64,000 bases of DNA from Schmidtea nova (lineage: Eukaryota): NCBI GenBank assembly GCA_044892505.1, contig CM097883.1, positions 157,976,001 to 158,040,000 of the forward strand. Reading direction: 5' to 3'. The notes beneath the pieces are model-generated. The model did not search any database and was not told the origin of the DNA. It saw nothing but the letters and a program-made list of their open reading frames with translations. The position numbers and the translations under genes are program-made. Of this stretch, positions 1,892 to 41,805 are shown piece by piece (the first letter of the stretch is position 1; each line of letters starts with the position of its first letter).

Positions 1892-1934
1892 TAAATAAAT
1901 GATGAATTTAGTAATATTATTCGTAATAAATAAA

Positions 1935-2110
1935 ATATGAGAAAGGATAATGAGAATTAATATGATAATTCATAATGAGAATTAATATGAGAATTCATAA
2001 TGAGAATTGATATGAGAATTCGTAATAAGAATTAATATGAGAATTTATAATGAGAATTAATACGATACTTGATAATGAGAATTAATAATGAGAATTTAAA
2101 ATGAGAGTTG
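1935..2110 (+). repeat. Degenerate short tandem repeat of TGAGAATT(A/C)ATA-like units
   Basis: Many imperfect copies of tgagaatt with AT-rich spacers. Confidence 0.7.
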
Positions 2111-2459
2111 ATAATGGCAATGACAGAAATCATAATAACAATTGATATTTATAAATAATTTTTGAGCTGCTCACGAGTAGTCCGTTAAGCACCCATTGGG
2201 AGGAACCAACCGATCAACTTACCCGAGATGTATAGAAAGGGGCCCATCGCGGAAATTGGAAAGCTTTTGTGATGTGACTGATCACCACATCTTGCATTAG
2301 TAGACCAATGCGATCTTTTTGTATATTTTGGTTGGGGTGAAAGGTAGGGACAATCTAATGAGGTTTAAGTGCGCGCAGAAAATATAAATAAAAAGAGAGA
2401 ACAGAAAACTGATCAGTAAGAAATAACGAGAATAAAAGTTAATATGATAACAAAGAATA

Positions 2460-3312
2460 ATAGCAACATGAGAATATGAACTCATGATTGTAGGCAACAT
2501 AAGAATTTGAACCTATGATTGCAGTGAATAATAGCAACATGAGAATATGAACTCATGATTGTAGGCAACATAAGAATTTGAACCTATGATTGCAGTGAAT
2601 AATAGCAACATGAGAATATGAACTCATGATTGTAGGCAACATAAGAATTTGAACCTATGATTGCAGTGAATAATAGCAACATGAGAATATGAACTCATGA
2701 TTGTAGGCAACATAAGAATTTGAACCTATGATTGCAGTGAATAATAGCAACATGAGAATATGAACTCATGATTGTAGGCAACATAAGAATTTGAACCTAT
2801 GATTGCAGTGAATAATAGCAACATGAGAATATGAACTCATGATTGTAGGCAACATAAGAATTTGAACCTATGATTGCAGTGAATAATAGCAACATGAGAA
2901 TATGAACTCATGATTGTAGGCAACATAAGAATTTGAACCTATGATTGCAGTGAATAATAGCAACATGAGAATATGAACTCATGATTGTAGGCAACATAAG
3001 AATTTGAACCTATGATTGCAGTGAATAATAGCAACATGAGAATATGAACTCATGATTGTAGGCAACATAAGAATTTGAACCTATGATTGCAGTGAATAAT
3101 AGCAACATGAGAATATGAACTCATGATTGTAGGCAACATAAGAATTTGAACCTATGATTGCAGTGAATAATAGCAACATGAGAATATGAACTCATGATTG
3201 TAGGCAACATAAGAATTTGAACCTATGATTGCAGTGAATAATAGTAACATGAGAATATGAACTCATGATTATAGGCAACATAAGGAATGTGAACCTGTGA
3301 TTGCGATTATGG
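2460..3312 (+). repeat. 71-bp tandem array: 11 identical units plus a degenerate 12th; shorter decaying subunits continue to ~3480
   Basis: tagcaacatgagaatatg recurs at 2461, 2532, 2603 ... 3171, then 3242 with substitutions. Confidence 0.95.
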
Positions 3313-4115
3313 ATAGCAACAGAAGGAATATGAACCTTTGATTGCATTGTGGATAACAACATAAGGAATATGAACCTATGATTGTAATTGTTAAAGACAA
3401 CGAAAGGAATATGAACCTAGAGTTGTATAAATTATCCGGATAAGCAACGAAAGGAATATGAACCTAGAGTTGTAGTCGTCGACGAAGTAAGAATAGTGAA
3501 TATTAGAGTTTGAATAATAAGAGTAAAGATGATTAAGAAAACTAGAGATACAGTATGCATACAAGTAGAAATAAGAATAGGAGAAATTAGAGTTGACCGT
3601 AAAAACCGGTAGAAATAGTGAGAATAGTGAGTAATGATGAGAAATTAGAGATGACCAATAGTGGGAATAATGAGTAACGATGATATAGTAAATAGTGATA
3701 AAATGATAATTGAGTCAGGAGAACTCAAGGGAATTAAAGCGTTGGAGCGACAAATTAAATTGGGAGACTGAGGGAAAAGTAATGAATTTATTTGATAACG
3801 ATAAATAATTATTACGACCATATAGATAATTGTTACCAGTGAATAGATAATTTAAATAGACTTAAATAAAGGGGAAACCGGGAATGGGGAAACAATGGAA
3901 ACCCAATAATGAGGAATAAAAGCGCAACGATAACAATGATGTATCGTTGAAGTGACTTTTTAATTTAGATATACGGAACAGAACAAGTCAAAACAACCAA
4001 CCAATCAATCAGAATACGATAACAGAGAAACAGAAAAATTGATAAATTAAAGAAAAGTAAACCGAGATCAAGAACAGTTAAAAACCAAGAAGTTAATAAT
4101 TCACAAAGAAATAAA

Positions 4116-7100
4116 TTGAGATCAAGAGCAGTTAGTGCTACAATCGAAAAAGTTGATAACTCCCAGAGAAGTAAATCGAAACAAAGAGCAACCAGTGTTA
4201 CAAAGAAAACAAATCCTAAAGGAAGTAAATCAAGAAGAGTAATAGTAGAAAAGTCAAAAGTCGAAAACAGTAAATTTGCTAAAACTAACGAAAGTGAAAC
4301 AGAAGAAAGTTTAAGTGAAACCTACGATAATTTTAATAATACAGAAGCATCAGATAACGAGTCAATAAACACAGAAGAAGTAGAAGCAGAAATTGATAAT
4401 AATTCAAACGAAACGAATAACGAGCATACTAGTGAAACAAGAGGAAACGAGAGTAAAACGACACAAGACAGCGGAATTGAAATGAACGAGCATAAAGAAG
4501 AAATCAAAGATAAATTTACTGGAGAACCATTCAATGGAGATGCCAGCAAGTTAGAAACGTTTTTAAAAGAATTTGGTATATTTGTAGAAGTATGTAAATG
4601 GAAACCAGAAACGATAAGGAGCAGAATTCAGTTATATTTAAAAGACAGTGCGTTAGATTTATATTTAGAAGCTAAAAATTCAGATGATCAACTCGATAAT
4701 TGGGAAAAGATAAAGAATTTTTTCCAGCAAACGTTTGGAATAAATAAAGTATTAAATGAAGCATTTACAGAATTTTCAATGAGGAAACAAAAAGTTAATG
4801 AATCAAATGCAGTATATGCAAGTGAATTAAAGAAATTGGCTAAATTGGCATTTAATCAAAATAGTCCAATGAGTCCAGAATTAATGGCAGCAATTTTTGT
4901 GGGGGGATTGAGAAGACCCGATATAAGAGCACAAGTTGGATGCCAAGGTTGTAAAACAATAGATGAAGCGTTGGAAATCGCTAACAGATTTGAGTTACAT
5001 ATGATCGGAAGTGAAGGAAGAATTTACCTAGCAATGGATACGACACAAAATGAACAAGCAATGAAGATAAACAATCATATCCCGAATTCACAACAATTAA
5101 ACCGACCACCACCTCAAAGGAGAAATGAAGGAAACAAAATACAAAATTACAGAAACCAAAATAATTATAGTACGCAAGGACAGACAAAGCAATGTCAAAC
5201 CTGTGGAAAGTTAGGACATTGGCAACAAGAATGTTTCGCGAATTTAAATTGTAAAAAGTGTGGAAGAAAAGGACATGCAGAAAATAGATGTTACCAAAGA
5301 TCATGTTATAACTGTGGACAATCAGGTCATATGGCGATGAACTGCCAACAACAAAACAACCAACAAAGGAATTGGTCGAACAACGGAAATCGACAAAATT
5401 ATACGAATCAACAGAGTAACGGAAACCGTCAGAATTTTGAAAATCAACAGAGTAATTATAACCAGAATAAAAGTACCACCAAGGAAATACATTTATTACA
5501 AGAAGTTCAAAGATTAACAGAATTAATAAACAATACACCGAGAGGAAATCAACAAACGAATCAACAACAAATGAATATGATGAGAAAAGTGGAAAGTGAA
5601 AATGAACGACTAAACCGAGAAAGTCAAGCACGACATGCTCAAGAATGGGCAAGAATACAAAGAGAAGACGAACAGAAACGACAAGAAAGAGAACGACAAC
5701 CACTGAGAATTAATATGATGAGAGCAGCGAATCAAACAAGAGATAACAAGGAAGATATTGAACCAGAAACAAATCAGATAAAACCAAATTTAGTAGATGA
5801 AGAAAACCAAAAAGAAATAGTACAAGAAAACGAAGAAGTTATGAAACAAAAAAGGATGTTGGTAGTCATGCCAAACGATCATGTATTTCAATTTGAATAT
5901 GATGAAAAAGAGGTAGTGGGAGTGTTAATTAATAAAATAAACAAGACGATTCCGGGAATGACGAAACTACCCCGAGAAGCATTTTTACAGACAGAAGACG
6001 AAGCAGCAATAAAATTGAAACCAACCGACATATGGAAAGATTTAGGAGTACCAATGAATAAAATGAAAGTCACAGTTATCCAAGAAATAGAAGAAAATAA
6101 CGATGAAGAGAAATCAAAACCAGTAACAAAAGTCAAAAGTAGAGCATTGAAGATATTTGAAGAGAGAATCAAACAGAGAAAAGCAATGGAGATAGAAAAA
6201 CGAAGAGGCCAAATAGAAGAATCAGAAAACAATGACAAAAAAGAAGAGATACCACCAAAAAATGTACCAGATAAAGTAGAACAGACAGCACATATAAATA
6301 TGTTAAGAAACTTAACTAGAGAATTTTCAGATGTAGAAAGTGACAGTGATGTCAGTAGTTTAGCAGGAGATATGCTAAAAGAACCAGAAAATGAAGACAA
6401 CAAGATAGAAGTAGCGAAGACGCCAGAGAATATACAAATAAAAGAAGATGAAATTCAGAAACTATTAGATAATGCGTTAGAAGTGATTTATAACGAGGAA
6501 TTTATTGAGAAGAAGCGATATCGAAAATTTATAAGAGCAGTGTTCCGAACGAACTATAAAGAACGGTTACAAAGTCGTGAAGTAGAGATACTATCAGGAT
6601 ACGTCGTCAAACTATTAGATGAACCACTCCATGAATATATAATTTTAATAGAAATAAACGAATGTTCACCAAGAATTTGGATCAAATCTCCATGCACGAA
6701 CGAAATTTATCGATGGGTAGAAGACAGATTAGGAAGTTCGTATAAAAACAAATTTATATATTCAGGAAATGAACTTGTAAGACGAGCAACGCATTTGGTA
6801 GAAACAGGCATATGGCCAGGAGAGATAACAACATTATCAATATGCGACAATAAGAAAGAGGAAAATTTACAAGAAATCGCAAAGGAAGCAAATATGTGTT
6901 TTGAGATGAGAATTAAACCTCAGTTAGTAGAAAGGAAAGAAAGAATTCTTAGAGAAAATTTAAATTCACTAATAGAACAAATTATTCAACAAATCGACAA
7001 GAATAGAGAAGAATTAACAAAAACTGAATATGAAAAATTAAAACAATGCATCGAAAATATACGAGATACCAGCCATACGAGACATTCGTCATACAAGACT

Positions 7101-10100
7101 TGGAAAGTGATCGCGAAAATGGGAAAAGCGATGTTTAAACGAGGGGAAATAGGAGATTTAAAAATCAAAGTGAAATTACCAAACGAAGACACAAAAGAAA
7201 TTGAAGTAATCGCGGATTGTACAATAGAAGAATTAGTTGATGTTATCAATGAAACTTTATTACAACGGGAAAAAGAAGACGAATTGGTAGACGATATCAT
7301 CATAAAATACAATGAACACGTACTAGGGGATCATGATGAGAGACGATTATATAAAATTGGTATATGGGATAATTACCAAACAATTCATGTTATCAGAATG
7401 GATGATACACCAAGAGAAACACCAAAAGACGAAAAAAGGAGACAAGAACGTCAAAGAGAAGCGATGCACAAACTAAGACAAATAATAGAAATTTATCGAA
7501 GATGGCAGATACAGCCAGAATGGGAAAATGTTTTAGGAGAATTAAACTTCAATGAACGCCGATTAACACCAGTAGAGAAACACTGGGATGTTAAAGAGAA
7601 ATGCTGGAAAGCAAAAGGAGGTATATATGAAGAAGAATTTAGACCAGAAATGGAAGACAAATATGAACCAGAAATTAGAAGAGTTTGTATGGTGACAAGA
7701 AAAGTCATGCCAACAGATTTGGATGGACCAGAAACCGCAGCAATATGGTTAGAAACGCAAAGACGAAAAGCCGACGAACTTATTGAATTACTAAAAGGAA
7801 ATGTACAAGGAAAAAGGCGAACGATCAAAGGATTAGCCGAATTCTTTGTAGCAGGCGGCGAAGATATAATCAGTTTAAGAAAAGTAGCCAAGGCAGTAAC
7901 AGAATATAAACGAGTTAACGAGTGGTGCCCAGAACAATTAGACAATGTAATCAAGAAATGGAGAAACCAAGAAAACTCCCAAGAACCACCGCAGAAAATA
8001 CATTTAAGGATAATATATCCAGATCGAGAAAAAGAAGAGCTTTGGGTAAGATTAACTGAAAAGATTCGAGATGTTAAAAAGAGATTAAAATACGAAACAC
8101 CATTTCATCTACAACATCAAGGACGATCATTGGAAAACGATATGGAAATTTGGATAACGCTAGCACAGTTAGATCTTGCAAATACGTTAACAGTAGACGC
8201 AATAGCAGGTCAACCATTAAAACTTAAAGAGAAAAGAGTAAGAGAAAGTGAAGATACTCAGAATCTAAGGAAGACGATGCAGATAAAACCAGGAACAAGC
8301 GCAAGGCAGTACGAAACAACATCAATTAAAACCCAAGAAAGAACTCGACCACAACCATACGATACAGAAGAAATCTTAACAGACAGTGATGACATGCTAG
8401 AAGAATTAGCAAAATTGACAAAAGAAAAAGGCAATAATATTTTCGAAAGAGTACAAGAGTTACCCACAACGTCACAAGCAATCAATACCCAAGATGAAGT
8501 TGAGCAAGAAATAGAAATAGAAGAAGTGAACGAAATCTCTGAAGAAGAAGCAAGAGGAGCAAATACAGAAAACGAACGATTTACACAAGAAATGGAAAAA
8601 TGGTGGGAACAGAGAAATAATGAACCAAGAGATGTTACAGAAGAAACTGGACGAGAAACCAGATTGATTGAAACAGGTACAACAATGGATAGACGACCTA
8701 GAGGTAGACCAAAGACAGATCCAGCCAACATAATCAACAAAACTAAAGAGGAAAGGAGACAAGAGAAATGGGAATTATGTTTAAAGAAACTCAACAAAAT
8801 AGCAGAAGCAAAAGACCAGGAAATAACGCAAAAATGTCAAGGTGAAGGATGGATATCAAAAGCACTAATGGAAATACTGGCGATAATTGATCCAGAATTG
8901 AAAAAATGGTGGAGAATAAACGAAATAAGCGACAAGGCTAAAGCATTACATAGCGCAATCGCACCAATCTTACCAGAACTGATAAAAGAAAAGGCAAAAT
9001 CAAGCCATTTAGATTGGCAAGGGACCACAACGTTGATAAAGAGGTTAACTGAAGATGCAGAAAATGATAATAAATATGTGATAGCAATTGCGTATACAAT
9101 TTATAACTTATTAACATTGAGTAGAGGTAATCCAAAATCCACAGCAATAGAGAAGCACATCAAAAATACAGCAAATATCATAGCAAAAGAAATAGAACCA
9201 TACGTCATAAGTAAAGGAGGATGGGAAACATTTGCTAAAACGAATCAAAGAAACAGTCAAGCAAAGAATATGAAAAAGAAATTTGAAGAAATTTTAGGAG
9301 AATTAGAAAAAGAAAAGTCAGGAACAGGAAGTGGAAAATCTTCACTAAACCTGAATTCAATCATAATGATGATATTAATATGGCTAATTAGCGTTGAAGG
9401 AGCAACGGCGTTCGAAGTATTTGATTGCGACCAGATGGCATTAGGAGAAAAATATTCATTAAGAGGAACCGAACAATGCAAAGATGCAACTCCAACAGAG
9501 CTAAAAGTACTACATAGGAAACAAATATATCACGTATATCAGGAAGCCGACTTAATAAAGACAACAGTTAATGAATGTAAAATATATAAAACAAGATTTG
9601 CTTTTTATTGTGGACATCGCCACTACTCTGCAATCGTATTGCCAGGAACGGAAAGAGAAGCGATAATGTTACAAGGAGAAGATTGCAATAAATTGTTCAA
9701 ACATGGAGAAGTCGAAACAAGAGATCGAATAAAGATAAGAGGAAAAGCTGGAGTAATACTACAACAAACATATTATGTAGCAGGAGCTATCACAGGAGGA
9801 GAAGGTTACTGTCAAGGAGCAACATATCCAAAATTTGGAGTACCAGCAACTAACATGGTAGTGATCGACACATATACGGTAGAATTAAAAGCGTATGAAG
9901 CATATTTTGACCCAGCAACAGGAGAAATGAAGACGTTATCAATGTGCAAAATTGAAGCCAGTACTTGTCAAACCGGTATGTCAACTTTAACATACAGAGC
10001 AAAAGCAAATGAATGCCAATTACAATTATTAAAGGAAGCAGAGTTCGACGAGGTACAAGGAAAAATCTTTCAGGAAGAAGATGATGATGAAGTAGCAAGA

Positions 10101-13100
10101 GGAAAACGTCTACAGGAGACAGTAAAAGGAGAGAAACCGTTCACAACTAAAGTACAAGAAAAAGAGGTGAGGATGAGAGAGACGCCAACAGTATTGGTTA
10201 CATCAAACGCAAATATAGGAATGAGGTTTGTAAAAGGAAAACCGGCATTAAAATGTGGTGTTTCTATGTTAGAAACAAATTATCCAGGTATTTATGTATC
10301 AAGACAAGCAGCACCGAATGCAAAACCTAAGATAGATACTACAGACATCAAATTACACGTATATTTAAATAACAAATTGGATTTTTTATTTCACAAAGGC
10401 CAAGCATCAATGGAGAAAATATACTACGATCTCATTAACAACGACTGTATATTGAACAGAGAAATATTAAAGACGAAACTAGCAGTAGCAATTACAAACC
10501 CGGATAGTGCGATGCCATTATTACCACTTAACGAAGGTCATTTTGGAAGAGTAGTTGGAGAAGTTATGTATGTATATATATGCCAAAAGACACAAGCAAA
10601 CCTAGCACCAACGACCAGAATACGACAAGGACAATGTACCAACGAATTGGAAATTGAATATAAAGGGAAAATAAGATATGTACAACCAGTGACAAGAATC
10701 ATTAACCCAGTTAGTTTTGAACCAAACCCTTTCAATTGCAGTAATGCATACGGACCATTATATCAGAAACCAGACGGGAATTGGGTCATGTTTCCGTCAA
10801 GATCAGAAGTACAACCACCTAGAGAATTTGAATTGATGCAACTTTCAAAAGGACGAAAATTTTCCAATATATATGTAAATAACGGAGGAATCTACAGTGC
10901 AAAAGATCTTGAAGCAGCACGACAAAATATATTATTCCCAGCTAGAAGAGAAGCAGTATTATCTAGCATTGTAACGATAACAGGAGGAACAAGTTACCAA
11001 GGAGGACCAAATTATGAATTATTACTGTCACCAGCACACTTTAAGAAAGCAACAGAAAATATGATGAAAGCAATGTGGGGACGATTTTTAATTTTCGGAC
11101 AAATGATGGCCGGAATACTAGGTGTAATTTTAATCATACAAATAATACGAGTGATAATCACACAAATGCTAGCATGTTTTGATATTTATAAAAGAGAAAA
11201 GAAAGTTAATTGGAAATTAATAGCAGGATTTTTACCATTTTTAGCAAAAACGATGGTGTTACATGGTCACTCAAAAGATATTCATAGAATAAAAAGATTG
11301 TTAAAAATACTGGCAAAAATGAAAGGAACAGATGAAGACGTGGGAAGAAAATTCAAAAAGATAATGACAGATGAACAAGCGAGATTACAATTAAAAAGCG
11401 AAAGAAAAGGATTATGGGAAAGAATAAGAGGAGATAAAACTCAAGATGATTCCAGTGATGACGATGATAACAATGACGACTGTGAAGGAGGGCAAAGGTA
11501 TAGAAACCAAGCACCGCAATATAGCGACAAGAATCCAACAGAAGCATGGAAATGTCACGCACCTCCACCAACAATGTACCAAGAACCATTACAGGTATCA
11601 GGACACAGAGCAATGCAAATGATGCCAAGGACAACTTTATATCCAATTATACCAGAAGATTATAAACTTAGACGATGTAGAAGTATGGATCCGCAAGACG
11701 ATTCACTCACAATTGCAGTCATGTCATCAAATACAGGACCAGTATTAACTACAACCATAGAAATAAATGGAAAAGAAATAGAAGCGATGATAGATACAGG
11801 AGCAAATATTTCGGCGATAGATATCAAATGGATACCGCAAGAACGAAGACAAGAAATCGAAAGAACAAATGTTCATGTAATAGCATGTAGTAAAGAGATA
11901 GTTGAAGTTGCAGGAAGATGGTGGGTGAAAATACGACACCAAAATAGAGAAATCGAAACCTATGTAGCAGTAATACCAGCTTTAAGTGTACCATGTATAA
12001 TCGGAACAGATTTAATGCCAACACTATTTAAAGAAATAATCATCGACCTTGGAACAATGAGATTAAAGGACAGAACAGGGAAAATATGTGCCATGAAAAC
12101 AAAAGTAATAAACTCGAAACAAATAATGATACCGGAAGAGAGAATCATGACGAGATCACAAACCATCAGAATAAATATGTTCAGAGCGGAAGAAATTAAC
12201 ACAACTAGTCAAGTAGACAGTGAGAAAATCGATGTTGACAAAGAAATCGTACGGAAAGCCAAAGAAATAAACGAAAGATGGGAAATCAGACGAGAAAATG
12301 ACGTATTATGGGATGTACGACAAATAATTAGTGATTACGCACGAGGATGCCCAACCAAACCAATTATAATAGAATTACTAAAGAAAATACCAGAGATACT
12401 CGTATTACAAGATACAGGAGGTGCAACTGCACTGCACAATGCCATAAGTTGGGGTAAAACAGAAAAGGTAAAAGAATTCTTGAAAATAGCAAAAGAAACG
12501 AATCAAAATCTAGACATTGTAAATCGAGAATTAGAAACGCCAATGATGACAGCAACACTAAGCTTAGCAGATAAAGAAATAGTAGATATGCTGATTAACG
12601 CAGAATTCAACTGGACAGCTCGAGATAGAAGAGGAAACACAGTTTTAAACCATGCAATAATGAGTGAAAATCAAATGATACTAAAACATATAACAACCAA
12701 CCTCACATGGGAAATCGATGAATTAATCAAAGGAGAAATTATGAAGGAAGCGATTCGGAAAGGAAACCCTAAAACAATATGGAAACTAATACAATGGAAA
12801 TGGCCGGATAATAAAACATGGGTATTGGATATAAACAAAGAATTTAGCGAAGGACAGAATGCACTATTGAGATACTTGTTAGAGTTTACGTGCGATCAGA
12901 GAACGATGTTAGCACTAATAAATAGAGAAAAAATAAATATTAGTAAAAACGAAGAGGAATATAAACTAGAAGTTGAAAAGAAAGCTTTATTCAGGAAAAT
13001 TTGGGTATGGTGTCAAAAACAAATACGCAAAGACATAAGCTACAAAAATCTAAATGATTTCCAAGAAAAGTATAAGATAATAATAAAGGAATACAAGAAG

Positions 13101-16100
13101 CTAGTGGAGATATTAAACGATCCAGAAAAATTTAATCAAGCAATAAATCAGAAAGAAGAAGAAAGTAAAAGGATACTCACACCATTATTCAATGCGAAGA
13201 TAGATTACCAAGAAAGATTGGATGCAATACACAAAAAAGCAAAGGAACTATTACCAGAATTCAAAGATACTAAATACGCCTTGGAAATACTTGGCGCGAT
13301 AGTAGAAAAAGTACACGCGTACGCGAAAGGAATATATAATGGAAGCGATATAATAATTATAAAAAGAGAGATGCCAGTTGCGTTTTTATTAACAAAAGAA
13401 AGAATAATGCCGATTCATAGAGCATTGAGAGCAGGAAAAGACAGTAAAGTAATCGAAATCGCAAGATTAATGCATCAATGTGGATGTGATATGAATATGA
13501 TAGACGAAAAAGGAGACACCCTCATGGTATACGCAGCAAGAGCAAAAACAAAAATCAAAGTATTAGAAGAATTATATAAAGCAGGCGCAGGATTAATCGG
13601 AAAAACTAGCAAAGACAACTCAATATTAGACGTGACATTATTAGGTCCAAACTGGGAAATGTTGAATTTCATTAAAACGATAACAAACCAGGAAGAAATA
13701 GATTATTTAACAGAAACCGTAAAAGGACCAAGCATATTGACAATGATGCAAAACATCAAATTGACAGAAGAAGTATTAAACTGGAAAATACCAAATACAA
13801 ATAAACCAGCATTTAAAGTTAACAAGTTTATGGAGAAAAATCGAAATTGGTGTATCCAAAGCGCACTAATAACTTATATATGGCCCGAAATTGTAGAAAT
13901 TTTTATGAGAAGAGAAGACCTGAGATTTACAAACAAGCCTAAAGAAACGGAAAAGGTAGTTAAATGGAAAGAATTGATGAAAACACACCTTCAAAGTTGG
14001 ATAAAAGCCAAGAAAGAAATTATACAGTATCAGTTAGACAAGAAAAAGATACCCGAAGATATAGAATTCCAGGAATTCGAAGCCAGTAACTTAACATCAC
14101 TATATTACGCAAAACTAATAGAAACAAGTAATGTCGAGGACGACATTTTTAACGGGCCAGGGAGAGATAATAATACTGACAAAGACGATGACGATGAAGA
14201 AAACAATGACGACGAGAGAAATAAAGACGATGATGATGATGAAAACAGTCACGGAAATCCAGATAACCACGAACAAACCAATAAAGAAGACGAGAATCAA
14301 GAGGGAAATACAAAGAACCACGAATCCAAAGAACAAAGAGAAGACAACCCTAAAAACAATCACGAAAAGAAAGGAACAAGTTACAGAAGAAATCCATTAT
14401 TCAGACCAGAAGTATTAATGTTCGCAATAATCATAACACTTATGGGACAATGTGAAGCAACGAAACAAGAGATATCAGTAGAAATGGAAGTACCAATACA
14501 AAAAGCATCAACACAAATAATGAATTCAAAGGAAATTGAACAAGTATGTTGGGTCAAAGAGAACGAAATTCTCGGAGATAACAACCTATTACGATGTATA
14601 ATCCCAAACCCCGAGCGAAAAACCATAATAATCGACGAAATGGATATGGAGACATGGTACAGAATATGTACTATCAGAAAACCCAAGGACGAAAAATCAC
14701 ACAAAATAGTTACATGCCAAGTATACAAGACACCCAAAGTTCGATACGAGTTCACCAATGGAATAGACCTTCCAGGACCATTTTATTTTAGAATAACAAG
14801 AACACCAGCATCAAGAAAAGTCTTACAACCACCAAGAACCAAGATAACAACACCAAGTATAAGGAATACAACGGATAAACCAGAACCAAAAAGACGAACG
14901 AAACAAACCACAAGAGTAATCTATAATTCCAAGTTGTTATGTATAGCACTTATTATGACAATACTGAAGCGATTGGAAGAAGGGATAGAAATGGATACAA
15001 TGACATTAATAGACATGGAAGAGACACGAATGACAAATCAAAAATGTTGGTTTAGAAACGATGAAAAATTAGAATTAAAGGAATCAAGAGAAATTCAAAA
15101 ATTGGAAGCGAGTAAAACGAACAAAGTAATCAAGATAATAAAGATAAAAACAGACAGAATTCATAAACTATGTTTATTGGAAAAAGAGAGAAACAAGAAA
15201 GGAATAACCAATTGTAAAACATTCCAAGCAGGGAAAATAATAACGTTTGCAAGAAAAATGGGGAAAAGAAACAAACAAAATTTCCAGAAATTAACCATAA
15301 CGTTAGAAATAACGGGAATAGAACAAAATGTAAACGGAGTATGCTGGAGAAAATACGAGAAAGAAACGAATAAACATAAATCATCACAATGTCAAACAAT
15401 CAGAGGAACAACTGCAGTGCAAATAAAAAGCTTAGAAAGAAATCAAACGTATGAAATATGCCTAGTAAAGGAAAATGATCAAATAACGAAAGAAGATTTA
15501 GAATGCAGAATATACAAAGCACCGAACAGAGTAAAAACCATTAAAGCAATACGAAAGAATAAAAGACAACAAAAACCGAAGCATACCACTACCGAAAGTC
15601 AAACAGAACCAGAGAGAAAAAACTCAGCAACACTTATACTTTGGAAATTGGATGACAAAACAGTAGAAATATGTTGGACAATGATCAAGAAATATGAAGA
15701 AAGACAACCACAACAATGCGAAAAGATGAATAAAGAAGAGGAGATCAGAATTCAGAACCTACAATTGGACAAACAATACGAAATATGCGCAATAGAAAAG
15801 GCAGATAAATTCGGAAACCAGCAAGAAAAATGTGGAAACTACTATACACCGACAAATACAACGATCAAAGGAAGAATCAAGAAACTAACTTTCGGAGAAT
15901 TGAATCAAACAACGAAACAAATGGAAAACGAGGAAACAATAATAGATTCTTATGCACAATGGAAACCAGAAAAAGTAATCCAGGAAGTCAAAAGGAAACA
16001 ACAAGAACGACAACAATTGGAACTCAAATTGAAAGGACAATATGGACCAATGATCAACCAAAGCAAATTCACCCAAATTAATATTAACAAGCAAAGAAGA

Positions 16101-16349
16101 GAACTAATTGGAGTAGGAATACTGGCAGTATGCGTACCAGTAATAATAATACTATCAATAATATGGCTATGGGACATAATAAAAAAGAAACCAACCAGAC
16201 AATGGCCAGATATAAAGATTATGAATTGTAAAATCAAGATACCAGAAGAAGTAAAGAAAGAATTCCAAAGAAGAACCAAAGGCAAAGAATTTTGGAAGCA
16301 GATCGAAGACGAGGAGCGACACGATGAAAAGGCAGTGATGATAGTATAG
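4116..16349 (+). CDS. 4077-aa polyprotein: Gag - Ubl x4 - AT-hook - Bcl-2-like - class III envelope glycoprotein - aspartic protease - ankyrin repeats - FN3-like membrane protein
   Basis: Single uninterrupted ORF; the frame is open from 4023, track start is TTG 4116, first ATG is 4482. Domain motifs are listed in the sub-features. Confidence 0.92.
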   Translation: MRSRAVSATIEKVDNSQRSKSKQRATSVTKKTNPKGSKSRRVIVEKSKVENSKFAKTNESETEESLSETYDNFNNTEASDNESINTEEVEAEIDNNSNETNNEHTSETRGNESKTTQDSGIEMNEHKEEIKDKFTGEPFNGDASKLETFLKEFGIFVEVCKWKPETIRSRIQLYLKDSALDLYLEAKNSDDQLDNWEKIKNFFQQTFGINKVLNEAFTEFSMRKQKVNESNAVYASELKKLAKLAFNQNSPMSPELMAAIFVGGLRRPDIRAQVGCQGCKTIDEALEIANRFELHMIGSEGRIYLAMDTTQNEQAMKINNHIPNSQQLNRPPPQRRNEGNKIQNYRNQNNYSTQGQTKQCQTCGKLGHWQQECFANLNCKKCGRKGHAENRCYQRSCYNCGQSGHMAMNCQQQNNQQRNWSNNGNRQNYTNQQSNGNRQNFENQQSNYNQNKSTTKEIHLLQEVQRLTELINNTPRGNQQTNQQQMNMMRKVESENERLNRESQARHAQEWARIQREDEQKRQERERQPLRINMMRAANQTRDNKEDIEPETNQIKPNLVDEENQKEIVQENEEVMKQKRMLVVMPNDHVFQFEYDEKEVVGVLINKINKTIPGMTKLPREAFLQTEDEAAIKLKPTDIWKDLGVPMNKMKVTVIQEIEENNDEEKSKPVTKVKSRALKIFEERIKQRKAMEIEKRRGQIEESENNDKKEEIPPKNVPDKVEQTAHINMLRNLTREFSDVESDSDVSSLAGDMLKEPENEDNKIEVAKTPENIQIKEDEIQKLLDNALEVIYNEEFIEKKRYRKFIRAVFRTNYKERLQSREVEILSGYVVKLLDEPLHEYIILIEINECSPRIWIKSPCTNEIYRWVEDRLGSSYKNKFIYSGNELVRRATHLVETGIWPGEITTLSICDNKKEENLQEIAKEANMCFEMRIKPQLVERKERILRENLNSLIEQIIQQIDKNREELTKTEYEKLKQCIENIRDTSHTRHSSYKTWKVIAKMGKAMFKRGEIGDLKIKVKLPNEDTKEIEVIADCTIEELVDVINETLLQREKEDELVDDIIIKYNEHVLGDHDERRLYKIGIWDNYQTIHVIRMDDTPRETPKDEKRRQERQREAMHKLRQIIEIYRRWQIQPEWENVLGELNFNERRLTPVEKHWDVKEKCWKAKGGIYEEEFRPEMEDKYEPEIRRVCMVTRKVMPTDLDGPETAAIWLETQRRKADELIELLKGNVQGKRRTIKGLAEFFVAGGEDIISLRKVAKAVTEYKRVNEWCPEQLDNVIKKWRNQENSQEPPQKIHLRIIYPDREKEELWVRLTEKIRDVKKRLKYETPFHLQHQGRSLENDMEIWITLAQLDLANTLTVDAIAGQPLKLKEKRVRESEDTQNLRKTMQIKPGTSARQYETTSIKTQERTRPQPYDTEEILTDSDDMLEELAKLTKEKGNNIFERVQELPTTSQAINTQDEVEQEIEIEEVNEISEEEARGANTENERFTQEMEKWWEQRNNEPRDVTEETGRETRLIETGTTMDRRPRGRPKTDPANIINKTKEERRQEKWELCLKKLNKIAEAKDQEITQKCQGEGWISKALMEILAIIDPELKKWWRINEISDKAKALHSAIAPILPELIKEKAKSSHLDWQGTTTLIKRLTEDAENDNKYVIAIAYTIYNLLTLSRGNPKSTAIEKHIKNTANIIAKEIEPYVISKGGWETFAKTNQRNSQAKNMKKKFEEILGELEKEKSGTGSGKSSLNLNSIIMMILIWLISVEGATAFEVFDCDQMALGEKYSLRGTEQCKDATPTELKVLHRKQIYHVYQEADLIKTTVNECKIYKTRFAFYCGHRHYSAIVLPGTEREAIMLQGEDCNKLFKHGEVETRDRIKIRGKAGVILQQTYYVAGAITGGEGYCQGATYPKFGVPATNMVVIDTYTVELKAYEAYFDPATGEMKTLSMCKIEASTCQTGMSTLTYRAKANECQLQLLKEAEFDEVQGKIFQEEDDDEVARGKRLQETVKGEKPFTTKVQEKEVRMRETPTVLVTSNANIGMRFVKGKPALKCGVSMLETNYPGIYVSRQAAPNAKPKIDTTDIKLHVYLNNKLDFLFHKGQASMEKIYYDLINNDCILNREILKTKLAVAITNPDSAMPLLPLNEGHFGRVVGEVMYVYICQKTQANLAPTTRIRQGQCTNELEIEYKGKIRYVQPVTRIINPVSFEPNPFNCSNAYGPLYQKPDGNWVMFPSRSEVQPPREFELMQLSKGRKFSNIYVNNGGIYSAKDLEAARQNILFPARREAVLSSIVTITGGTSYQGGPNYELLLSPAHFKKATENMMKAMWGRFLIFGQMMAGILGVILIIQIIRVIITQMLACFDIYKREKKVNWKLIAGFLPFLAKTMVLHGHSKDIHRIKRLLKILAKMKGTDEDVGRKFKKIMTDEQARLQLKSERKGLWERIRGDKTQDDSSDDDDNNDDCEGGQRYRNQAPQYSDKNPTEAWKCHAPPPTMYQEPLQVSGHRAMQMMPRTTLYPIIPEDYKLRRCRSMDPQDDSLTIAVMSSNTGPVLTTTIEINGKEIEAMIDTGANISAIDIKWIPQERRQEIERTNVHVIACSKEIVEVAGRWWVKIRHQNREIETYVAVIPALSVPCIIGTDLMPTLFKEIIIDLGTMRLKDRTGKICAMKTKVINSKQIMIPEERIMTRSQTIRINMFRAEEINTTSQVDSEKIDVDKEIVRKAKEINERWEIRRENDVLWDVRQIISDYARGCPTKPIIIELLKKIPEILVLQDTGGATALHNAISWGKTEKVKEFLKIAKETNQNLDIVNRELETPMMTATLSLADKEIVDMLINAEFNWTARDRRGNTVLNHAIMSENQMILKHITTNLTWEIDELIKGEIMKEAIRKGNPKTIWKLIQWKWPDNKTWVLDINKEFSEGQNALLRYLLEFTCDQRTMLALINREKINISKNEEEYKLEVEKKALFRKIWVWCQKQIRKDISYKNLNDFQEKYKIIIKEYKKLVEILNDPEKFNQAINQKEEESKRILTPLFNAKIDYQERLDAIHKKAKELLPEFKDTKYALEILGAIVEKVHAYAKGIYNGSDIIIIKREMPVAFLLTKERIMPIHRALRAGKDSKVIEIARLMHQCGCDMNMIDEKGDTLMVYAARAKTKIKVLEELYKAGAGLIGKTSKDNSILDVTLLGPNWEMLNFIKTITNQEEIDYLTETVKGPSILTMMQNIKLTEEVLNWKIPNTNKPAFKVNKFMEKNRNWCIQSALITYIWPEIVEIFMRREDLRFTNKPKETEKVVKWKELMKTHLQSWIKAKKEIIQYQLDKKKIPEDIEFQEFEASNLTSLYYAKLIETSNVEDDIFNGPGRDNNTDKDDDDEENNDDERNKDDDDDENSHGNPDNHEQTNKEDENQEGNTKNHESKEQREDNPKNNHEKKGTSYRRNPLFRPEVLMFAIIITLMGQCEATKQEISVEMEVPIQKASTQIMNSKEIEQVCWVKENEILGDNNLLRCIIPNPERKTIIIDEMDMETWYRICTIRKPKDEKSHKIVTCQVYKTPKVRYEFTNGIDLPGPFYFRITRTPASRKVLQPPRTKITTPSIRNTTDKPEPKRRTKQTTRVIYNSKLLCIALIMTILKRLEEGIEMDTMTLIDMEETRMTNQKCWFRNDEKLELKESREIQKLEASKTNKVIKIIKIKTDRIHKLCLLEKERNKKGITNCKTFQAGKIITFARKMGKRNKQNFQKLTITLEITGIEQNVNGVCWRKYEKETNKHKSSQCQTIRGTTAVQIKSLERNQTYEICLVKENDQITKEDLECRIYKAPNRVKTIKAIRKNKRQQKPKHTTTESQTEPERKNSATLILWKLDDKTVEICWTMIKKYEERQPQQCEKMNKEEEIRIQNLQLDKQYEICAIEKADKFGNQQEKCGNYYTPTNTTIKGRIKKLTFGELNQTTKQMENEETIIDSYAQWKPEKVIQEVKRKQQERQQLELKLKGQYGPMINQSKFTQININKQRRELIGVGILAVCVPVIIILSIIWLWDIIKKKPTRQWPDIKIMNCKIKIPEEVKKEFQRRTKGKEFWKQIEDEERHDEKAVMIV
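4482..5345 (+). other. Polyprotein domain: Gag capsid-like region plus three CX2CX4HX4C zinc knuckles (5193-5345)
   Basis: PFNGDASKLETFLKEF...W..IKNFFQQTF capsid-like motif; CQTCGKLGHWQQEC, CKKCGRKGHAENRC, CYNCGQSGHMAMNC. Confidence 0.9.
5850..8212 (+). other. Polyprotein domains: up to four ubiquitin-like (beta-grasp) domains at ~5850-6090, 6636-6850, 7158-7403 and 7995-8212
   Basis: The pattern LKIKVKLPNEDTKEIEVIADCTIEELVDVI...IIIKYNEHVL...LYKIGIWDNYQTIHVI resembles ubiquitin; also KFIYSGNELVRRATHLVETGI and FHLQHQGRSLEND. The first copy is the weakest. Confidence 0.6.
8860..9240 (+). other. Polyprotein domain: divergent Bcl-2-like domain
   Basis: EIEPYVISKGGWETF fits BH2 (Bcl-2 LHTWIQDNGGWDAF), preceded by a degenerate BH1-like RLTEDAENDNKYVIAIAY with correct helix spacing. 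Confidence 0.65.
9351..11261 (+). other. Polyprotein domain: signal peptide plus chuvirus-type class III fusion glycoprotein with furin site and TM anchor
   Basis: Signal NSIIMMILIWLISVEGA; FEVFDC...EQC...ECKIYKTRFAFYCGHRHYS; RGKR at 10098-10109; YLNNKLDFLF...DCILNREILKTKLA...GHFGRVVGEVMYVYIC; TM FLIFGQMMAGILGVILIIQII. Confidence 0.85.
11745..12060 (+). other. Polyprotein domain: retropepsin-type aspartic protease
   Basis: IEINGKEIEAMIDTGANISAI (DTG at 11793) ... CIIGTDLM. Confidence 0.92.
12400..13680 (+). other. Polyprotein domains: two ankyrin-repeat clusters (~12400-12790 and ~13400-13680)
   Basis: DTGGATALHNAISWG, RELETPMMTA, DRRGNTVLNHAI; MPIHRALRAG, DEKGDTLMVYAARA. Confidence 0.85.
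14412..16349 (+). other. Polyprotein C-terminal membrane protein: internal signal sequence, four Cys-conserved FN3-like repeats, TM helix (16104-16172) and short tail
   Basis: Repeat pattern CW-x(n)-C-x(n)-I..L...(Y)EIC-x(n)-C..(Y)..P occurs four times; VLMFAIIITLMGQCEA signal-like segment; LIGVGILAVCVPVIIILSIIWLW TM. Confidence 0.6.
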
Positions 16350-16807: not shown

Positions 16808-16905
16808 TCAAATTGTAGCGGAAAATTGTAGATATGTAAAAATAAAACTCTAGAAAAATCAAAAAAACAAAGAACAAATCAATGTATGTATATATTATTG
16901 TAGAA

Positions 16906-18261
16906 ATGGATAAAGAGGAACGAGCAGTCGAGATTTTGAGAGCAGCAAACAGAAATTGGAACAAGAGATTTGTATGTGGATATTGTAATAATTTATTACG
17001 GAAACCAAAGCAAACCGCCTGTGGATGTAGATTATGCACTAGATGTGTACAAATGTTAGAGTTAAAAGGAATAACAGAATGTCCAGAATGTAAAGAAGGA
17101 CAAATAGTATTAGACGAAACAAGACCAGATAGAGCAACTCAGAGAGAAATCATGAGCATATTAATTGAATGTATAAATCCACCGTGCATATGGCAAGGAC
17201 AAATCAGCGAAATTGAAAATCATATAGAAAATTGTGAAGAAAAGAGAAGCGAATGTGAAAAGTGTAAAGAAACGATAATTTTAAAAGACAAAGAGAAACA
17301 CAGAGATGAATGCAAAGAGGAAGAAATCGCATGTGAATATTGCGAAATTCGAGAAACAAGGAGAAAAATTGAAGAAGAGCACATCAATATAAAAGAAGAG
17401 AGAATATGCGAACAGTATGTAGGAGTGTGCCCAAACAAATGTGAAATTACCGAAGAAGTGAAATTACGAGAACATTGGAAAAAGTGTACAGAAATACCAA
17501 GAGAATGTCCTTACAACAGATATGGATGCAAGGAAAAGAAGTCTCAACAAAATATGAAACAACATTTAGAAACCGAAGCAATCAATCATATGGAAATGAC
17601 AGACAGAAATATTCAGAAATTAGAAAAAGAAGTGGAATCTCATAAAATAATGATGAACCTATTATTAGAAACGAGAGAACAGTTTGAATTAACCCGAGGA
17701 AAGATGGAAAAGAAAATAATAGCCATCAAAGAATTAGCAAAAGGAATGAAAGTGCAATATAACAAGTTAATACAAGAAATTGATGAGAAAAAAGATTTAC
17801 CAATAGCACCTTATGTATGGAAAATAACGGATTTTCGAAATAAATTGGAAGATGCACGAAGCTTCAAGAAAACTGCGGTAATAAGCCCACCATTTTACTT
17901 ATGGAAAAACGGGGCTAAAGTGAGATTGAAAGTATATCCAAACGGAGATGGGAAAAGTATGGGAAAACACCTATCAATAATTTTTGCGTTTTGCAAAGGA
18001 GAATATGACGATTTAATCGATTGGCCTATAGGAGTAGGAGTAATGATAAAAATCAGGGGTTTAAACGAAACCATAGAAAAGAGATTCACGACAGAAAAAG
18101 GAGCAGTTACGAGTAACAGACCAACAGAAGAATGTGGATTAGCAAGTGGAGAACCACACTTTGTATTACAAAGCAAGATATGGGGATTATTGTATGAGGA
18201 CACCTTATACATAGAAATGGAAAGGAACGAGAAGGCAGATAGAAAAGGATGGTTGGCGTAG
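16906..18261 (+). CDS. Full-length TRAF-family protein (RING - TRAF zinc fingers - coiled coil - MATH), intronless; track ORF starts 16882, likely ATG 16906
   Basis: RING CGYCNNLL...CGCRLCTRC...CPEC; several C..C...H...C fingers; MATH YVWKITDF...SPPFY...LKVYPNGDG...HLSI...GEYDDLIDWP. Confidence 0.92.
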   Translation: MDKEERAVEILRAANRNWNKRFVCGYCNNLLRKPKQTACGCRLCTRCVQMLELKGITECPECKEGQIVLDETRPDRATQREIMSILIECINPPCIWQGQISEIENHIENCEEKRSECEKCKETIILKDKEKHRDECKEEEIACEYCEIRETRRKIEEEHINIKEERICEQYVGVCPNKCEITEEVKLREHWKKCTEIPRECPYNRYGCKEKKSQQNMKQHLETEAINHMEMTDRNIQKLEKEVESHKIMMNLLLETREQFELTRGKMEKKIIAIKELAKGMKVQYNKLIQEIDEKKDLPIAPYVWKITDFRNKLEDARSFKKTAVISPPFYLWKNGAKVRLKVYPNGDGKSMGKHLSIIFAFCKGEYDDLIDWPIGVGVMIKIRGLNETIEKRFTTEKGAVTSNRPTEECGLASGEPHFVLQSKIWGLLYEDTLYIEMERNEKADRKGWLA

Positions 18262-18366
18262 CAAGAGAAAATGATCGTGTAAATAAACTGTACAAAACAA
18301 TATAAAACGATAAATAAACAAAAATAATAAAAGTAGTTTGATTGAAAATATTTGTAATTATAGAAA

Positions 18367-19470
18367 ATGGGAAACGTCGAAATCAGTTTACAAGAAGTTA
18401 CCGCACATCAAGATGAAGTTATTTGTGAGCATTTAGAACAAATTGAAAGTTGGATCCACGCATATTACCACAAACAAAAAGAAGTAGAAAGACAAGCCGA
18501 ACAAATAACAGAAGCCAAAAGATTAAAGCGATTAAGTCAAGATAAAATAGACGAATTATATGAATTATTGGAGAAACAAAAAGAATATTATAAAAAGATG
18601 ATGAAAGAACGACGAGAAGAAAGAGAGCGAGAACGAACAGAAATGGAACGGAAAATGTACTCCATTACCGAGCAAGCAAGATATTGGAAAAAAGAAGCGA
18701 AAGAATCTTATACGAAAGCAAGAGAAATAATCGAAAGAACGGCGTACAGCGATGATTGGAAATTATTTGAAGAAATCGATAAATTAAAAGAGGAATTAGA
18801 ACAGAAAACCTATCAGGAAATATCGAGCAAAAAATGGAATAAAAAAAGACAACAATTCATCAGAGAGCAAGCAGGAAAAATTAAACAACTTATGCACCAG
18901 ATTGAAAGATCGGAAAGAGAATTATATTTCAGTAAACAACAATCAGATGCAAACCTCAGAGCAGGGATGCAGAAAGAGGAAGATATGAAGCGCGATATTA
19001 ATGGTTATCAAGGAGTAATCACTCAAAAGAAGATAGAATTAAAGAAAACTAAAGAAAGATTAGAAGAAGCAAAACAAAGCTATGAAGAAAATTTATTAAA
19101 ATTAAAAGAAGCAAAACAAAGCTATGAGGAAAATTTAGTAAATTTAACCAAAGAAAATGAAGAGTTGAAACAAAAATTGATACAAAAATTAACACCACCA
19201 AAAGAGATAGATATCACCAAAGCAGTAATAAAAATGATGGAAGAGGAAGAGAAAAACAATAAAATAACAGAATTAGAAAAACAGATCGAAGCGTTAACAG
19301 AACAATCAAATTATTTAGAATACCTGTTAGACGAAGAAATTCAATTGTCACACTTCTATCGAGATGAAGTAACAATGTGGAGAAACACGATAGTATGGTT
19401 ACCACTCCCTACGAATCAAGTGGAACCTCAAGATGAAGGTTTTCACGAACCCAATGAGTCGTTAGTTTAA
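18367..19470 (+). CDS. 367-aa long coiled-coil protein of unknown function
   Basis: E/K-rich heptads, internal 11-aa duplication EAKQSYEENL; TTATAG|AAAATG context. Confidence 0.7.
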   Translation: MGNVEISLQEVTAHQDEVICEHLEQIESWIHAYYHKQKEVERQAEQITEAKRLKRLSQDKIDELYELLEKQKEYYKKMMKERREERERERTEMERKMYSITEQARYWKKEAKESYTKAREIIERTAYSDDWKLFEEIDKLKEELEQKTYQEISSKKWNKKRQQFIREQAGKIKQLMHQIERSERELYFSKQQSDANLRAGMQKEEDMKRDINGYQGVITQKKIELKKTKERLEEAKQSYEENLLKLKEAKQSYEENLVNLTKENEELKQKLIQKLTPPKEIDITKAVIKMMEEEEKNNKITELEKQIEALTEQSNYLEYLLDEEIQLSHFYRDEVTMWRNTIVWLPLPTNQVEPQDEGFHEPNESLV

Positions 19471-19544
19471 AGAGAAGCGAAAATTCTTTGTAAATATCTG
19501 TAACATAACAATGTCAAACTGTATTGACAAATTTGTAAAGTGAA

Positions 19545-20108
19545 ATGAAGAAGCTCGCAATACTGATAATCCTAAACGTAATCGAAATCACCCAACAAAG
19601 AGAAGACCGTCCGATATCAAAAGAAAACCTACAAGTCTTACCCGATAAAATCTATAAAGAAATAGATGATCTATTAAAAGAAGCAACTAAAGAAATTTCT
19701 CAAATTCAATTGTCAACAGCACCTAACCCAGTATCAACGCAACAAACCCTGTGCAAAATCAATAACAAATTAGAGAAGATTCGAAAAACCCTGAAAGAAA
19801 GTAAAGAAACTATAAAGAATTTACATCAAGCAGAAATTCAATACCAAGAAAGATGGATCGTTGCGATTATAATCGTATTAACAATTAGTACAACAACCAG
19901 CGCAATTACCATTCTCATCGCAGTATATAGAATAAAGATCCTAAAACAAAAACAATCGATCATCAATCAAACAACAGCATACGATGACAATGCCCGAAGA
20001 CAAATGAGAAATCAGTTCAACAGAATACGAACCCAATACGAGTTACCAGCAATTCCACAGAACCAGTCCAATCCAGTGCGAGTTATGAACTATTTGTATA
20101 AACCATAA
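19545..20108 (+). CDS. 187-aa predicted type I membrane protein
   Basis: Signal MKKLAILIILNVIEIT; TM WIVAIIIVLTISTTTSAITILIAVY; tail containing YELP. Confidence 0.7.
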   Translation: MKKLAILIILNVIEITQQREDRPISKENLQVLPDKIYKEIDDLLKEATKEISQIQLSTAPNPVSTQQTLCKINNKLEKIRKTLKESKETIKNLHQAEIQYQERWIVAIIIVLTISTTTSAITILIAVYRIKILKQKQSIINQTTAYDDNARRQMRNQFNRIRTQYELPAIPQNQSNPVRVMNYLYKP

Positions 20109-20280
20109 ATACGTGACAAAATATTTGATTAACAATTATCTGAATTTTCTATATTTTCTTCGTGATTACGTATAGACTAAACTCACCTTATGTGAATCTT
20201 TACACTTATGTATCAAACGTAGAATTTTTTATGAATGTTAAGTAAGTAATATTGTATAATTAATTGCGGGACGCAATTTT

Positions 20281-20296
20281 AGGGGTCCCCGAGTGA
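20281..20296 (+). promoter_or_regulatory. Polypurine-tract position (imperfect, AGGGGTCCCCGAGTGA)
   Basis: Immediately precedes the TG start of the 3' LTR; only partly purine-rich. Confidence 0.5.
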
Positions 20297-20654
20297 TGTT
20301 GGATCCACCATTTAGTCCACATGTAACATAAATAATAGGAATAATAAGAAATAAATAAGAATAAATTAAAATTAAAATAATTACCAGAATTTCAGAAAAA
20401 ACGAATTAAAATGTAATAAAGAATATTAATTTAATATCAAAAATTGGAAGAAAGTAAATGGAAAATGTAAAAGTGTTAAAGAAACAATGATATTTAATTG
20501 TATTTAAGGCAAAATAAAGAAATAATAAAGAAAAAGAATTACAGAATATTAAAAATCAAAAACAACAAATTAGTAGCAATTTAAAGCAAATCAATCGATT
20601 TGATTTTTAATGTAATTTATTATTTGTGCTGATCTGATGCTCAGCTTCACGCTG

Positions 20655-20856
20655 ATTGGTCCAAGCTTTGATCTGATCAGTATATATACTGATACAGATC
20701 CAGATAATTTTAATGTTTTTATATGCTTTTTAGTTATTGAAAATATTCAAATTTGAGATCATTCTTAAACCAAAGGTATGGATTATTGATTGTTTTTATT
20801 TGTATAATTTTATTGTGGAGTTCTGACATTGCCATTATGTTTATCCAATTAATAAA
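20655..20856 (+). promoter_or_regulatory. LTR core promoter and poly(A) signal: reverse CCAAT (20655), TATA (20681), splice donor AAG|GTATGG (20776), AATAAA (20851)
   Basis: Motif order typical of a U3-R region; positions read from the sequence, function inferred. Confidence 0.5.
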
Positions 20857-40380: not shown

Positions 40381-40500
40381 TAAAATTGTTCGACAAGAAC
40401 TCAATAATCACACCTCTATACAAAAAACGCTACAGCGATTGCCTCAAGTAAAAAAACACAAACATACATAAGCACATATATATATATATATATATATATA

Positions 40501-41798: not shown

Positions 41799-41805
41799 TA
41801 TATAT

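Follow-up and report, generated by a model that had tools for sequence, protein, structure and literature searches.

Planarian Burro elements carry an envelope (env) region in frame between BCL2 and protease, with matches to mononegavirus glycoproteins (PMC6431247, 2019). Flatworm GAG-ENV-POL elements with a gB-type Env were also described, six of them from S. mediterranea, for which an ancient association was argued and the mechanism of entry was called unknown (PMC13524379). BURRO1 RNA is up after piwi knock-down in another context (PMC8532177). Deleted morphs of endogenous retroviruses (ERVs) that are complemented in trans comprise IAP IΔ1/IAP, ETn/MusD and cattle ERVK C/D, and in cattle ERVs a four-haplotype test served as evidence of co-packaging (PMC10924933). 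In this study, we analyzed a window of 64,000 nucleotides from Schmidtea nova (assembly GCA_044892505.1, contig CM097883.1, positions 157,976,001 to 158,040,000), in which an earlier note, made from the letters alone, had placed an intact chuvirus-type class III fusion glycoprotein at 9411-11261, together with a Gypsy-like Gag. We consider it probable (about 0.7) that this stretch is the env part of a Gag-Env-protease polyprotein of a Burro-type Gypsy element, predicted to be of class III, in a recent copy that lacks pol and was likely copied with the enzymes of other copies.

Comparison with described elements

By its order of domains, the element has the layout of the Burro/Gag-Env-Pol Gypsy type of flatworms. 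As described for Burro and GYPSM1, one open reading frame (ORF) of about 5,000 aa (about 5,100 aa in complete siblings of the window copy) encodes a CCHC Gag, a BCL2-like domain (weak match here) and an env between BCL2 and protease; ankyrin repeats and MATH/TRAF are shared as well, as is a length of about 28 kb, the likeness being judged by layout. Different from them, the window copy has no reverse transcriptase (RT), RNase H or integrase, its TRAF-like domain is encoded by a downstream accessory ORF, and no BIR match was found. The Burro section of PMC6431247 likens the env to gypsy Env, whereas the fold predicted here is class III, and that section makes no mention of deletion classes, internal signal peptides or an FN3-like C-terminus. 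Smed_errantivirus_1-6 likewise combine a Ty3/Gypsy pol with a gB-type Env before Pol, a variable furin site and many near-identical copies (PMC13524379). By eye, Smed_errantivirus_5 is closest to the env studied here and Smed_errantivirus_1 to a smaller family with ORFs of 3,393-3,401 aa. Together with the architecture, this resemblance of the envs suggests a planarian-type host. That survey was restricted to intact elements, and neither pol-less or env-less classes nor recombination were found in the part of it consulted.

Novelty of the env in a Gypsy element is not supported: the layout was already published in 2019 for planarian Burro (PMC6431247) and appears again in PMC13524379, and the env itself is one more member of a published class. 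Anakin and other BEL/Pao elements (PMC7642597, PMC12440569) have PF24664 and the fold class in common with it. They belong to a different superfamily, and their glycoprotein follows the integrase, whereas the env here precedes the protease.

Position of the env in the polyprotein

The stretch at 9411-11261 is translated without a stop from its N-terminus FEVFDC, and is not a stand-alone gene. It forms residues 1797-2413 of a 4,108-aa ORF at 4023-16349 (stop to stop, first Met at 4482; all features are on the forward strand unless stated). The polyprotein is composed of Gag, a long middle region, a weak Bcl-2-like domain, a hydrophobic segment, the Env ectodomain, a transmembrane helix, protease, ankyrin repeats and an FN3-like membrane part, and the frame is open throughout from Gag to protease, with zero stops and zero frameshifts between domains. 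The Gag capsid and three CCHC knuckles at 4482-5357 (Retrotrans_gag E 1.6e-5, zf-CCHC E 3.2e-8) bear out the Gypsy-like Gag of the earlier note, and its intact glycoprotein agrees with the open frame, the transmembrane helix at 11085-11174, whose topology is kept in relatives, and the hydrophobic segment before the ectodomain. Regarding the motifs it had listed, FDC, RGKR (10098), LNNKLDF (10365) and DC.L.R..L (10443) are exact, whereas YCG.H, G.FGRVVGEV...C and WG.F..FG..AG are one or two spacer residues off.

The predicted Env ectodomain at 9411-11078 has 563 aa, 14 Cys residues and one N-sequon, with RGKR at 10098-10109. The hydrophobic segment at 9345-9410 is predicted to be an internal signal peptide and occupies the position of the would-be Bcl-2 tail anchor; with the threshold applied, 14 of 16 polyproteins have such a segment immediately N-terminal of the ectodomain. 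The Bcl-2-like domain at 8811-9257 was assigned from relatives and profiles. The Pfam scan gave no match in the window copy and placed two relatives under the cut-off (Bcl-2, E 1e-4 and 7e-4), a four-row profile matches Bax (E 2.4e-4) and also Bcl-xL, and an Atlas search yielded nothing usable. Downstream of the transmembrane helix, on its predicted cytosolic side, lies a retropepsin with an IDTGA motif (11730-12092, RVP E 1e-8), followed by ankyrin repeats (12360-12722, Ank_2 E 2.5e-13) with further repeats downstream.

A second predicted membrane protein, with a weak signal peptide, FN3-like domains and a C-terminal transmembrane segment, was located at 14397-16184. Its model is of low confidence (predicted local distance difference test, pLDDT, 44.9), the best Foldseek matches among those listed are FN3-containing chains (E 3.5e-5), and fn3 was the top Atlas result at 0.82. 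A second segment together with a C-terminal transmembrane helix after the integrase was found in five of eight RT-bearing rows, the second segment of this subfamily being below threshold. The FN3-like protein could serve as an attachment or decoy protein. A post-integrase signal segment and transmembrane helix are also found in distant relatives of the polyprotein. The only ubiquitin-like match in the polyprotein is at E 0.007, and Pfam scans of the window copy and of the extra region of its siblings gave no BIR and no dUTPase match.

Predicted class III fold of Env

The Env region matches the Pfam family PF24664 (Monjiviricetes_fusion) with E 4.6e-73 and 246.7 bits against a cut-off of 27. 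This match is not due to chance, considering its E value and the absence of any match to the family in 14 control genomes. A profile built from four element envs retrieved 1,767 proteins at E 0.001 or better, and an alignment of 113 rows was composed of 109 short proteins among the 150 matches listed and the four genomic envs. In this alignment nearly all rows share 13 of the 14 cysteines. The model of the ectodomain, with the same alignment as input, has a mean pLDDT of 88.5, a predicted TM-score of 0.69 and a central helix at 315-362.

Structure searches converge on class III proteins, with gB and chu-like G as the best matches. All top Foldseek matches in the PDB are herpesvirus gB (E 1.1e-14, TM-score about 0.4), and among viral predicted structures chu-like, qin-like and xinmo-like G lead (E 5.7e-34, TM-score up to 0.70). 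In VIA, herpes simplex virus gB has Z 9.2 with a root-mean-square deviation of 7.4 over 397 aligned residues, and rabies and Chandipura G, thogotovirus Gp and GP64 are lower. The predicted structure displays the gB-like multi-domain fold with a long central helix, and the sequence has the predicted signal segment, conserved cysteines and C-terminal transmembrane helix of class III proteins. Thus, a class III (gB/chuvirus-type) fold is well supported as a prediction. In a PDB sequence search no match was better than E 0.29, with only HDAC6 and Fab chains as noise, and a word-indexed protein search gave zero matches near the query length and one at longer lengths. The predicted fold and conserved cysteines are common to herpesvirus gB and jingchuviral G, yet identity to these is 10-20%, and the Env described here, a putative fusogen, is part of a retrotransposon polyprotein. 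Stand-alone glycoproteins of about 650 aa are 17-23% identical to it.

Loss of pol in the window copy

The earlier note overlooked that RT, RNase H and integrase are absent from the window element, as found by Pfam scan and comparison with siblings. An in-frame deletion of about 3.0 kb has its junction at 12117-12140 and coincides, at about 12,130, with a short repeated motif. Complete relatives have ORFs of 5,115-5,147 aa (5,147, 5,115 and 5,140), representing two siblings about 96-97% identical in DNA and the sister subfamily, whose env is 84% identical. In the siblings, about 3.0 kb of additional sequence behind the protease encodes RT, RNase H and integrase, with Gypsy-type RT_RNaseH and Integrase_H2C2. 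The order of protease, RT, RNase H and integrase in complete siblings of about 98% identity supports the Gypsy host suggested before, the part from RT to integrase being what is missing in the window copy. The window copy does not possess the RT and integrase of an autonomous retrotransposon, and cannot reverse-transcribe itself. The same type of pol junction was found in 48 of 57 pol-less copies.

Four classes of copies and their probable recombination

A total of 71 copies, each fetched or read from the window, were collected by a 27-nt anchor behind the pol-deletion junction. The anchor was derived from the pol-less window copy, and nine of 22 pol-start matches, compared by hand, fall outside the census; hence pol-bearing copies are undercounted by at least nine, and complete copies may reach about 14 of 80. 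Five copies possess both env and pol, eight are env-less with pol, plus one with partial pol, and 39 have env but no pol. The rest are four pol-less copies with partial env and 14 doubly deleted copies, among them one that is unmappable upstream and one whose deletion differs. The common env deletion of about 1,795 codons extends from after Gag to just before the protease, and removes the Bcl-2-like domain, signal segment, ectodomain and transmembrane helix together and in frame, leaving a plain Gag-protease-Pol. All classed junctions preserve the frame. The Pol module and the Bcl-2-signal-Env-transmembrane module were lost independently, and all four combinations are present as young insertions.

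Three env-less copies with pol have open frames of 3,330 aa and pairs of long terminal repeats (LTRs) that are 99.89-99.96% identical, and two doubly deleted copies have frames of 2,323 and 2,107 aa between LTRs of 99.95-100% identity. A clear 4-bp duplication flanks three of the five env-less or doubly deleted copies examined. Upstream of the anchor, frames are open to the expected length in six of eight env-less copies with pol, seven of 14 doubly deleted, 20 of 39 pol-less with env, and four of five complete copies. The env-deletion haplotypes are found with and without pol (a, 3 and 3; b1, 2 and 6; b2, 4 and 3), which points to recombination between co-packaged RNAs, and template switching between such RNAs would be the simplest reading of the pattern. 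The env alleles are also interleaved across pol states, with 5 changes against a shuffled mean of 4.8.

In the sister subfamily, 79 of 85 copies are complete according to motif spacing; the contrast with 5 of 71 is between non-independent copies, counted with a biased anchor. A 4,130-aa frame there was examined as a possible deletion and rejected, being the full ORF interrupted by one stop. A narrow pattern for the env-skipping joint had detected one locus only, owing to sequence variants, and is superseded by the census. As in the ERV morphs of PMC10924933, deleted copies outnumber competent ones, and evidence of co-packaging comes from four haplotypes. The cattle D morphs are without any ORF, whereas here every morph has retained a long open frame, and the losses of two complementary modules are separate. 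No deletion classes in Burro elements were found in a literature search of partial coverage, with most subscription journals and Repbase outside it.

Selection on env

Between the window copy and the sister subfamily, the ratio of non-synonymous to synonymous substitution rates (dN/dS) of the env ectodomain is 0.08 at dS 1.2, and pol and the C-terminal part have 0.02 and 0.22 in the same comparison. Env ratios within the subfamily range from 0.05 to 0.13. These values indicate that env is under purifying selection. The allele set was composed of 43 copies, 38 pol-less and five complete, after exclusion of one with an internal duplication. Variants exclusive to pol-less copies and present in at least two of them are 47 synonymous and 17 non-synonymous. 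Singletons are 63 synonymous and 59 non-synonymous plus three stops, with a ratio of the corresponding polymorphisms (pN/pS) of 0.25.

Origin of env and the RGKR site

The env tree was constructed from 132 rows with FastTree only, is unrooted and has 105 unlabelled rows. Rows counted in the polyprotein group were those longer than 1,000 aa and four shorter close matches, with the long row P0133 ungrouped. A branch with support 99 separates 20 polyprotein-type rows (1 change, against a shuffled mean of 6.3) from one BEL/Pao-linked protein (P0049, with DUF5641 before the glycoprotein), four proteins of insect genomes and two named G of chuviruses. Nine elements have both RT and env, with RT identity to the sibling of 46-54% outside the sister pair; their RT and env trees agree on the deepest split, and P0007 and P0002 are placed differently. 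Judged from these trees, the env is of an old element-borne clade, separate from insect captures. From the unrooted tree, neither a donor nor a direction of transfer is claimed. The independent capture proposed in the earlier note is supported in so far as the lineage is apart from BEL/Pao- and insect-associated glycoproteins; a recent capture is not supported, as a single group is formed by envs whose elements have RTs only 46-54% identical. Two or more retropepsin motifs per polyprotein were seen in P0002, P0005, P0015 and others, and P0007 is filed under a bacterial metagenome-assembled genome, probably by contamination.

The RGKR motif that had been read as an intact furin site is indeed there, and is present in 43 of 43 env copies of the subfamily. 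It is located in a low-confidence insertion of the model, at which 110-111 of the 113 aligned rows have a gap, and the sister subfamily has RGKI at the same position. A furin-type site in the ectodomain was found in two of 16 polyproteins, both of this subfamily, so that the other 14 are without it and conservation is confined to the subfamily. The furin site of gB-type ENV is reported as not always conserved in flatworm errantiviruses (PMC13524379). Furin processing of this Env is doubtful from the motif comparison.

Other features of the element and the window

The LTR element spans 25.0 kb, including sequence upstream of the window. The 3' part of the 5' LTR occupies 1-963, the full LTR (2,836 bp, TG...CA) starting about 1.87 kb before the window, and the 3' LTR lies at 20297-23132. 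The pair differs by five mismatches over 2,836 bp (99.82% identity) and the target duplication is the 4-bp TTTG; the sequence indicates that this copy was recently inserted. A primer-binding site at 973-990 is complementary to the 3' end of tRNA-Pro(TGG) in genomic arrays; the TG...CA LTRs, target duplication and tRNA primer site are those of Ty3/Gypsy. The primer site begins 6-9 nt past the 5' LTR (964-972), as in siblings, and no clear polypurine tract is seen ahead of the 3' LTR at 20270-20296, the same as in siblings. One long tandem tRNA-Pro(TGG) array with a 308-bp period lies at about 459.6 Mb of C1 in genome G000 (L212), with 1,113 motif matches genome-wide.

Several accessory ORFs accompany the polyprotein. 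An ORF at 1394-1891 encodes a C-terminal RING finger (zf-C3HC4_3, E 1.2e-11), has no BIR match and is present in five of five siblings fetched. Leader tandem repeats of 25-nt and 71-nt units were detected at 1910-3420. The TRAF-like ORF with zinc fingers and MATH is at 16846-18261 (MATH_2 E 2.4e-20, zf-TRAF E 2.7e-8). It is followed at 18364-20108 by two ORFs kept in siblings, one of 368 aa, charged and coiled-coil-like, the other of 189 aa with a hydrophobic stretch, neither matching a family above cut-off. A 197-aa ORF within the LTR (21933-22526, also in the 5' LTR upstream) is kept in siblings and has no family above cut-off.

Elsewhere in the window, hAT-type transposase fragments were found at 23033-24084 (DUF4371, E 5.5e-12) and, by eye, at 49354-51875 and 59050-60673, and the LTR element appears inserted in one hAT-type fragment. 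A Mariner-like transposase ORF of 341 aa, identified by eye on the reverse strand at 40681-41706, adjoins inverted repeats at 40490-40531 and 41768-41808. Two further decayed Gypsy-like elements were recognized by eye at 36303-40137 (gag, RT and integrase pieces) and 60850-63028 (gag and protease). Five stretches of N, all outside the element, are at 30749-30884, 33459-33621, 34924-35097, 35210-35362 and 57466-57623. The smaller family mentioned above is autonomous, about 16-17 kb long, with ORFs of 3,401 and 3,393 aa in the order Gag-Bcl2-Env-protease-Pol (L071-L074 and L075-L078; G000 C1 60.08 Mb and C2 373.52 Mb), an env 36% identical to this one and many open copies. It was considered as pol-less and rejected, since it carries RT, RNase H and integrase.

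Discussion

We propose that the hydrophobic segment ahead of the ectodomain acts as an internal signal peptide, at which signal peptidase would free the ectodomain in the lumen of the endoplasmic reticulum and leave Gag-Bcl-2 anchored. The Env transmembrane helix would return the protease, and Pol in complete copies, to the cytosol, so that Pol would hang on the Env tail and not on Gag; the element protease would then cleave at domain borders, at short repeated motifs. Errantiviruses with a separate env ORF differ from this single-frame route. The common env deletion takes both membrane segments and would thus leave a cytosolic Gag-protease-Pol, an ordinary intracellular retrotransposon, and a copy with the pol deletion would still make Gag, Env and protease but depend on RT and integrase in trans. 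RNAs of different copies would be co-packaged, recombine and complement each other, pol-less copies using Pol in trans, and env-bearing and env-less kinds of copies likely share particles. Occasional entry of enveloped particles into other cells of the same animal may be why Env is kept, while intracellular transposition would need no Env in cis. It is a tentative and rather unlikely extension that the subfamily is splitting into two cooperating genomes, one enzyme-less with env and the other env-less with enzymes, which share particles, spread from cell to cell with Pol riding on the Env tail and make up a de facto bipartite endogenous virus.

Several observations weigh against this account. 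The signal peptidase and protease sites were read by eye and form a post-hoc pattern without a control, and most aligned relatives have a less polar first predicted fusion loop. The four-haplotype pattern could also come about by repeated deletion at identical short repeats or by gene conversion among integrated copies; the pol junctions are of two types and the env junctions of several. Nearly every copy of the sister subfamily is complete, so splitting is no general property of such elements. Broken env was found in eight of 38 pol-less and none of five complete copies, the latter being all the complete env alleles sampled. With env alleles recombining freely, pol-less copies may show the traces of selection that acted in complete copies alone.

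The strongest competitor, possible although we lean against it, is that pol-less copies are pure parasites, shorter passengers like IAP IΔ1 or cattle D-type ERVs, for which PMC10924933 gives a precedent; their env would be intact through youth and recombination with complete copies, and nothing would be given back. This would account for env alleles not sorted by pol state, for the eight broken envs among 43 being all pol-less, and for the spread of doubly deleted copies with neither module (14 of 71, LTRs 99.95-100% identical). It fits poorly with the mostly synonymous variants shared among pol-less copies only and the low pN/pS of singletons, or with the 20 of 39 pol-less env copies that are open over all 2,166 codons fetched and the classed junctions that are all in frame. 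We give little credence to the view that a chuvirus glycoprotein was captured independently and renders particles, primed by furin, infectious between cells or hosts. Chu-like and xinmo-like G are the nearest predicted viral folds, the polyprotein envs are apart from one BEL/Pao-linked and two named chuviral sequences, and RGKR is in all 43 env copies of the subfamily. Yet this site is not conserved beyond, identity to stand-alone glycoproteins is only 17-23%, the env is common to the 20 deep-branching Gag-Env-Pol rows on one side of a well-supported branch, RT and env trees agree on the deepest split despite the differences at P0007 and P0002, and PMC13524379 argues for an ancient association.

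About equally improbable is that Env acts at the cell surface, as a fusogen or a receptor blocker that serves the element or the host, forming cell-cell bridges or blocking superinfection, and not as a virion spike. The element has many host-directed parts (RING, TRAF, Bcl-2-like, ankyrin, FN3-like), envelope-independent cell-to-cell transfer is known in other LTR elements (PMC11952523), and pol-less copies with env are the largest class, but Env and Gag are encoded together at a ratio of one to one, and Env is carried by hundreds of mobile copies rather than by one fixed locus. Assembly errors or one-off deletions after insertion are a very improbable source of the classes, even in a genome rich in near-identical repeats, as identical junctions are found at dozens of loci, which differ in their flanks and each have an LTR pair of their own, and contigs from public runs carry the env-skipping joints 6254-11643 and 6262-11648 (four runs of one study, possibly of the source material and not independent).

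The env class is already published, and a four-class recombining subfamily was not found described in the part of the literature searched. Recent env-less insertions show that Env is dispensable in cis, and a dN/dS near 0.08 shows that something keeps it; the single-frame layout implies processing via internal signal peptides and a Pol linked to Env instead of Gag. A young subfamily that includes complete and doubly deleted genomes as well as ones with env or pol only, next to a complete sister subfamily, constitutes a natural experiment, which bears on whether invertebrate Gypsy elements use their gB-type envs to enter other cells or can transpose without them.

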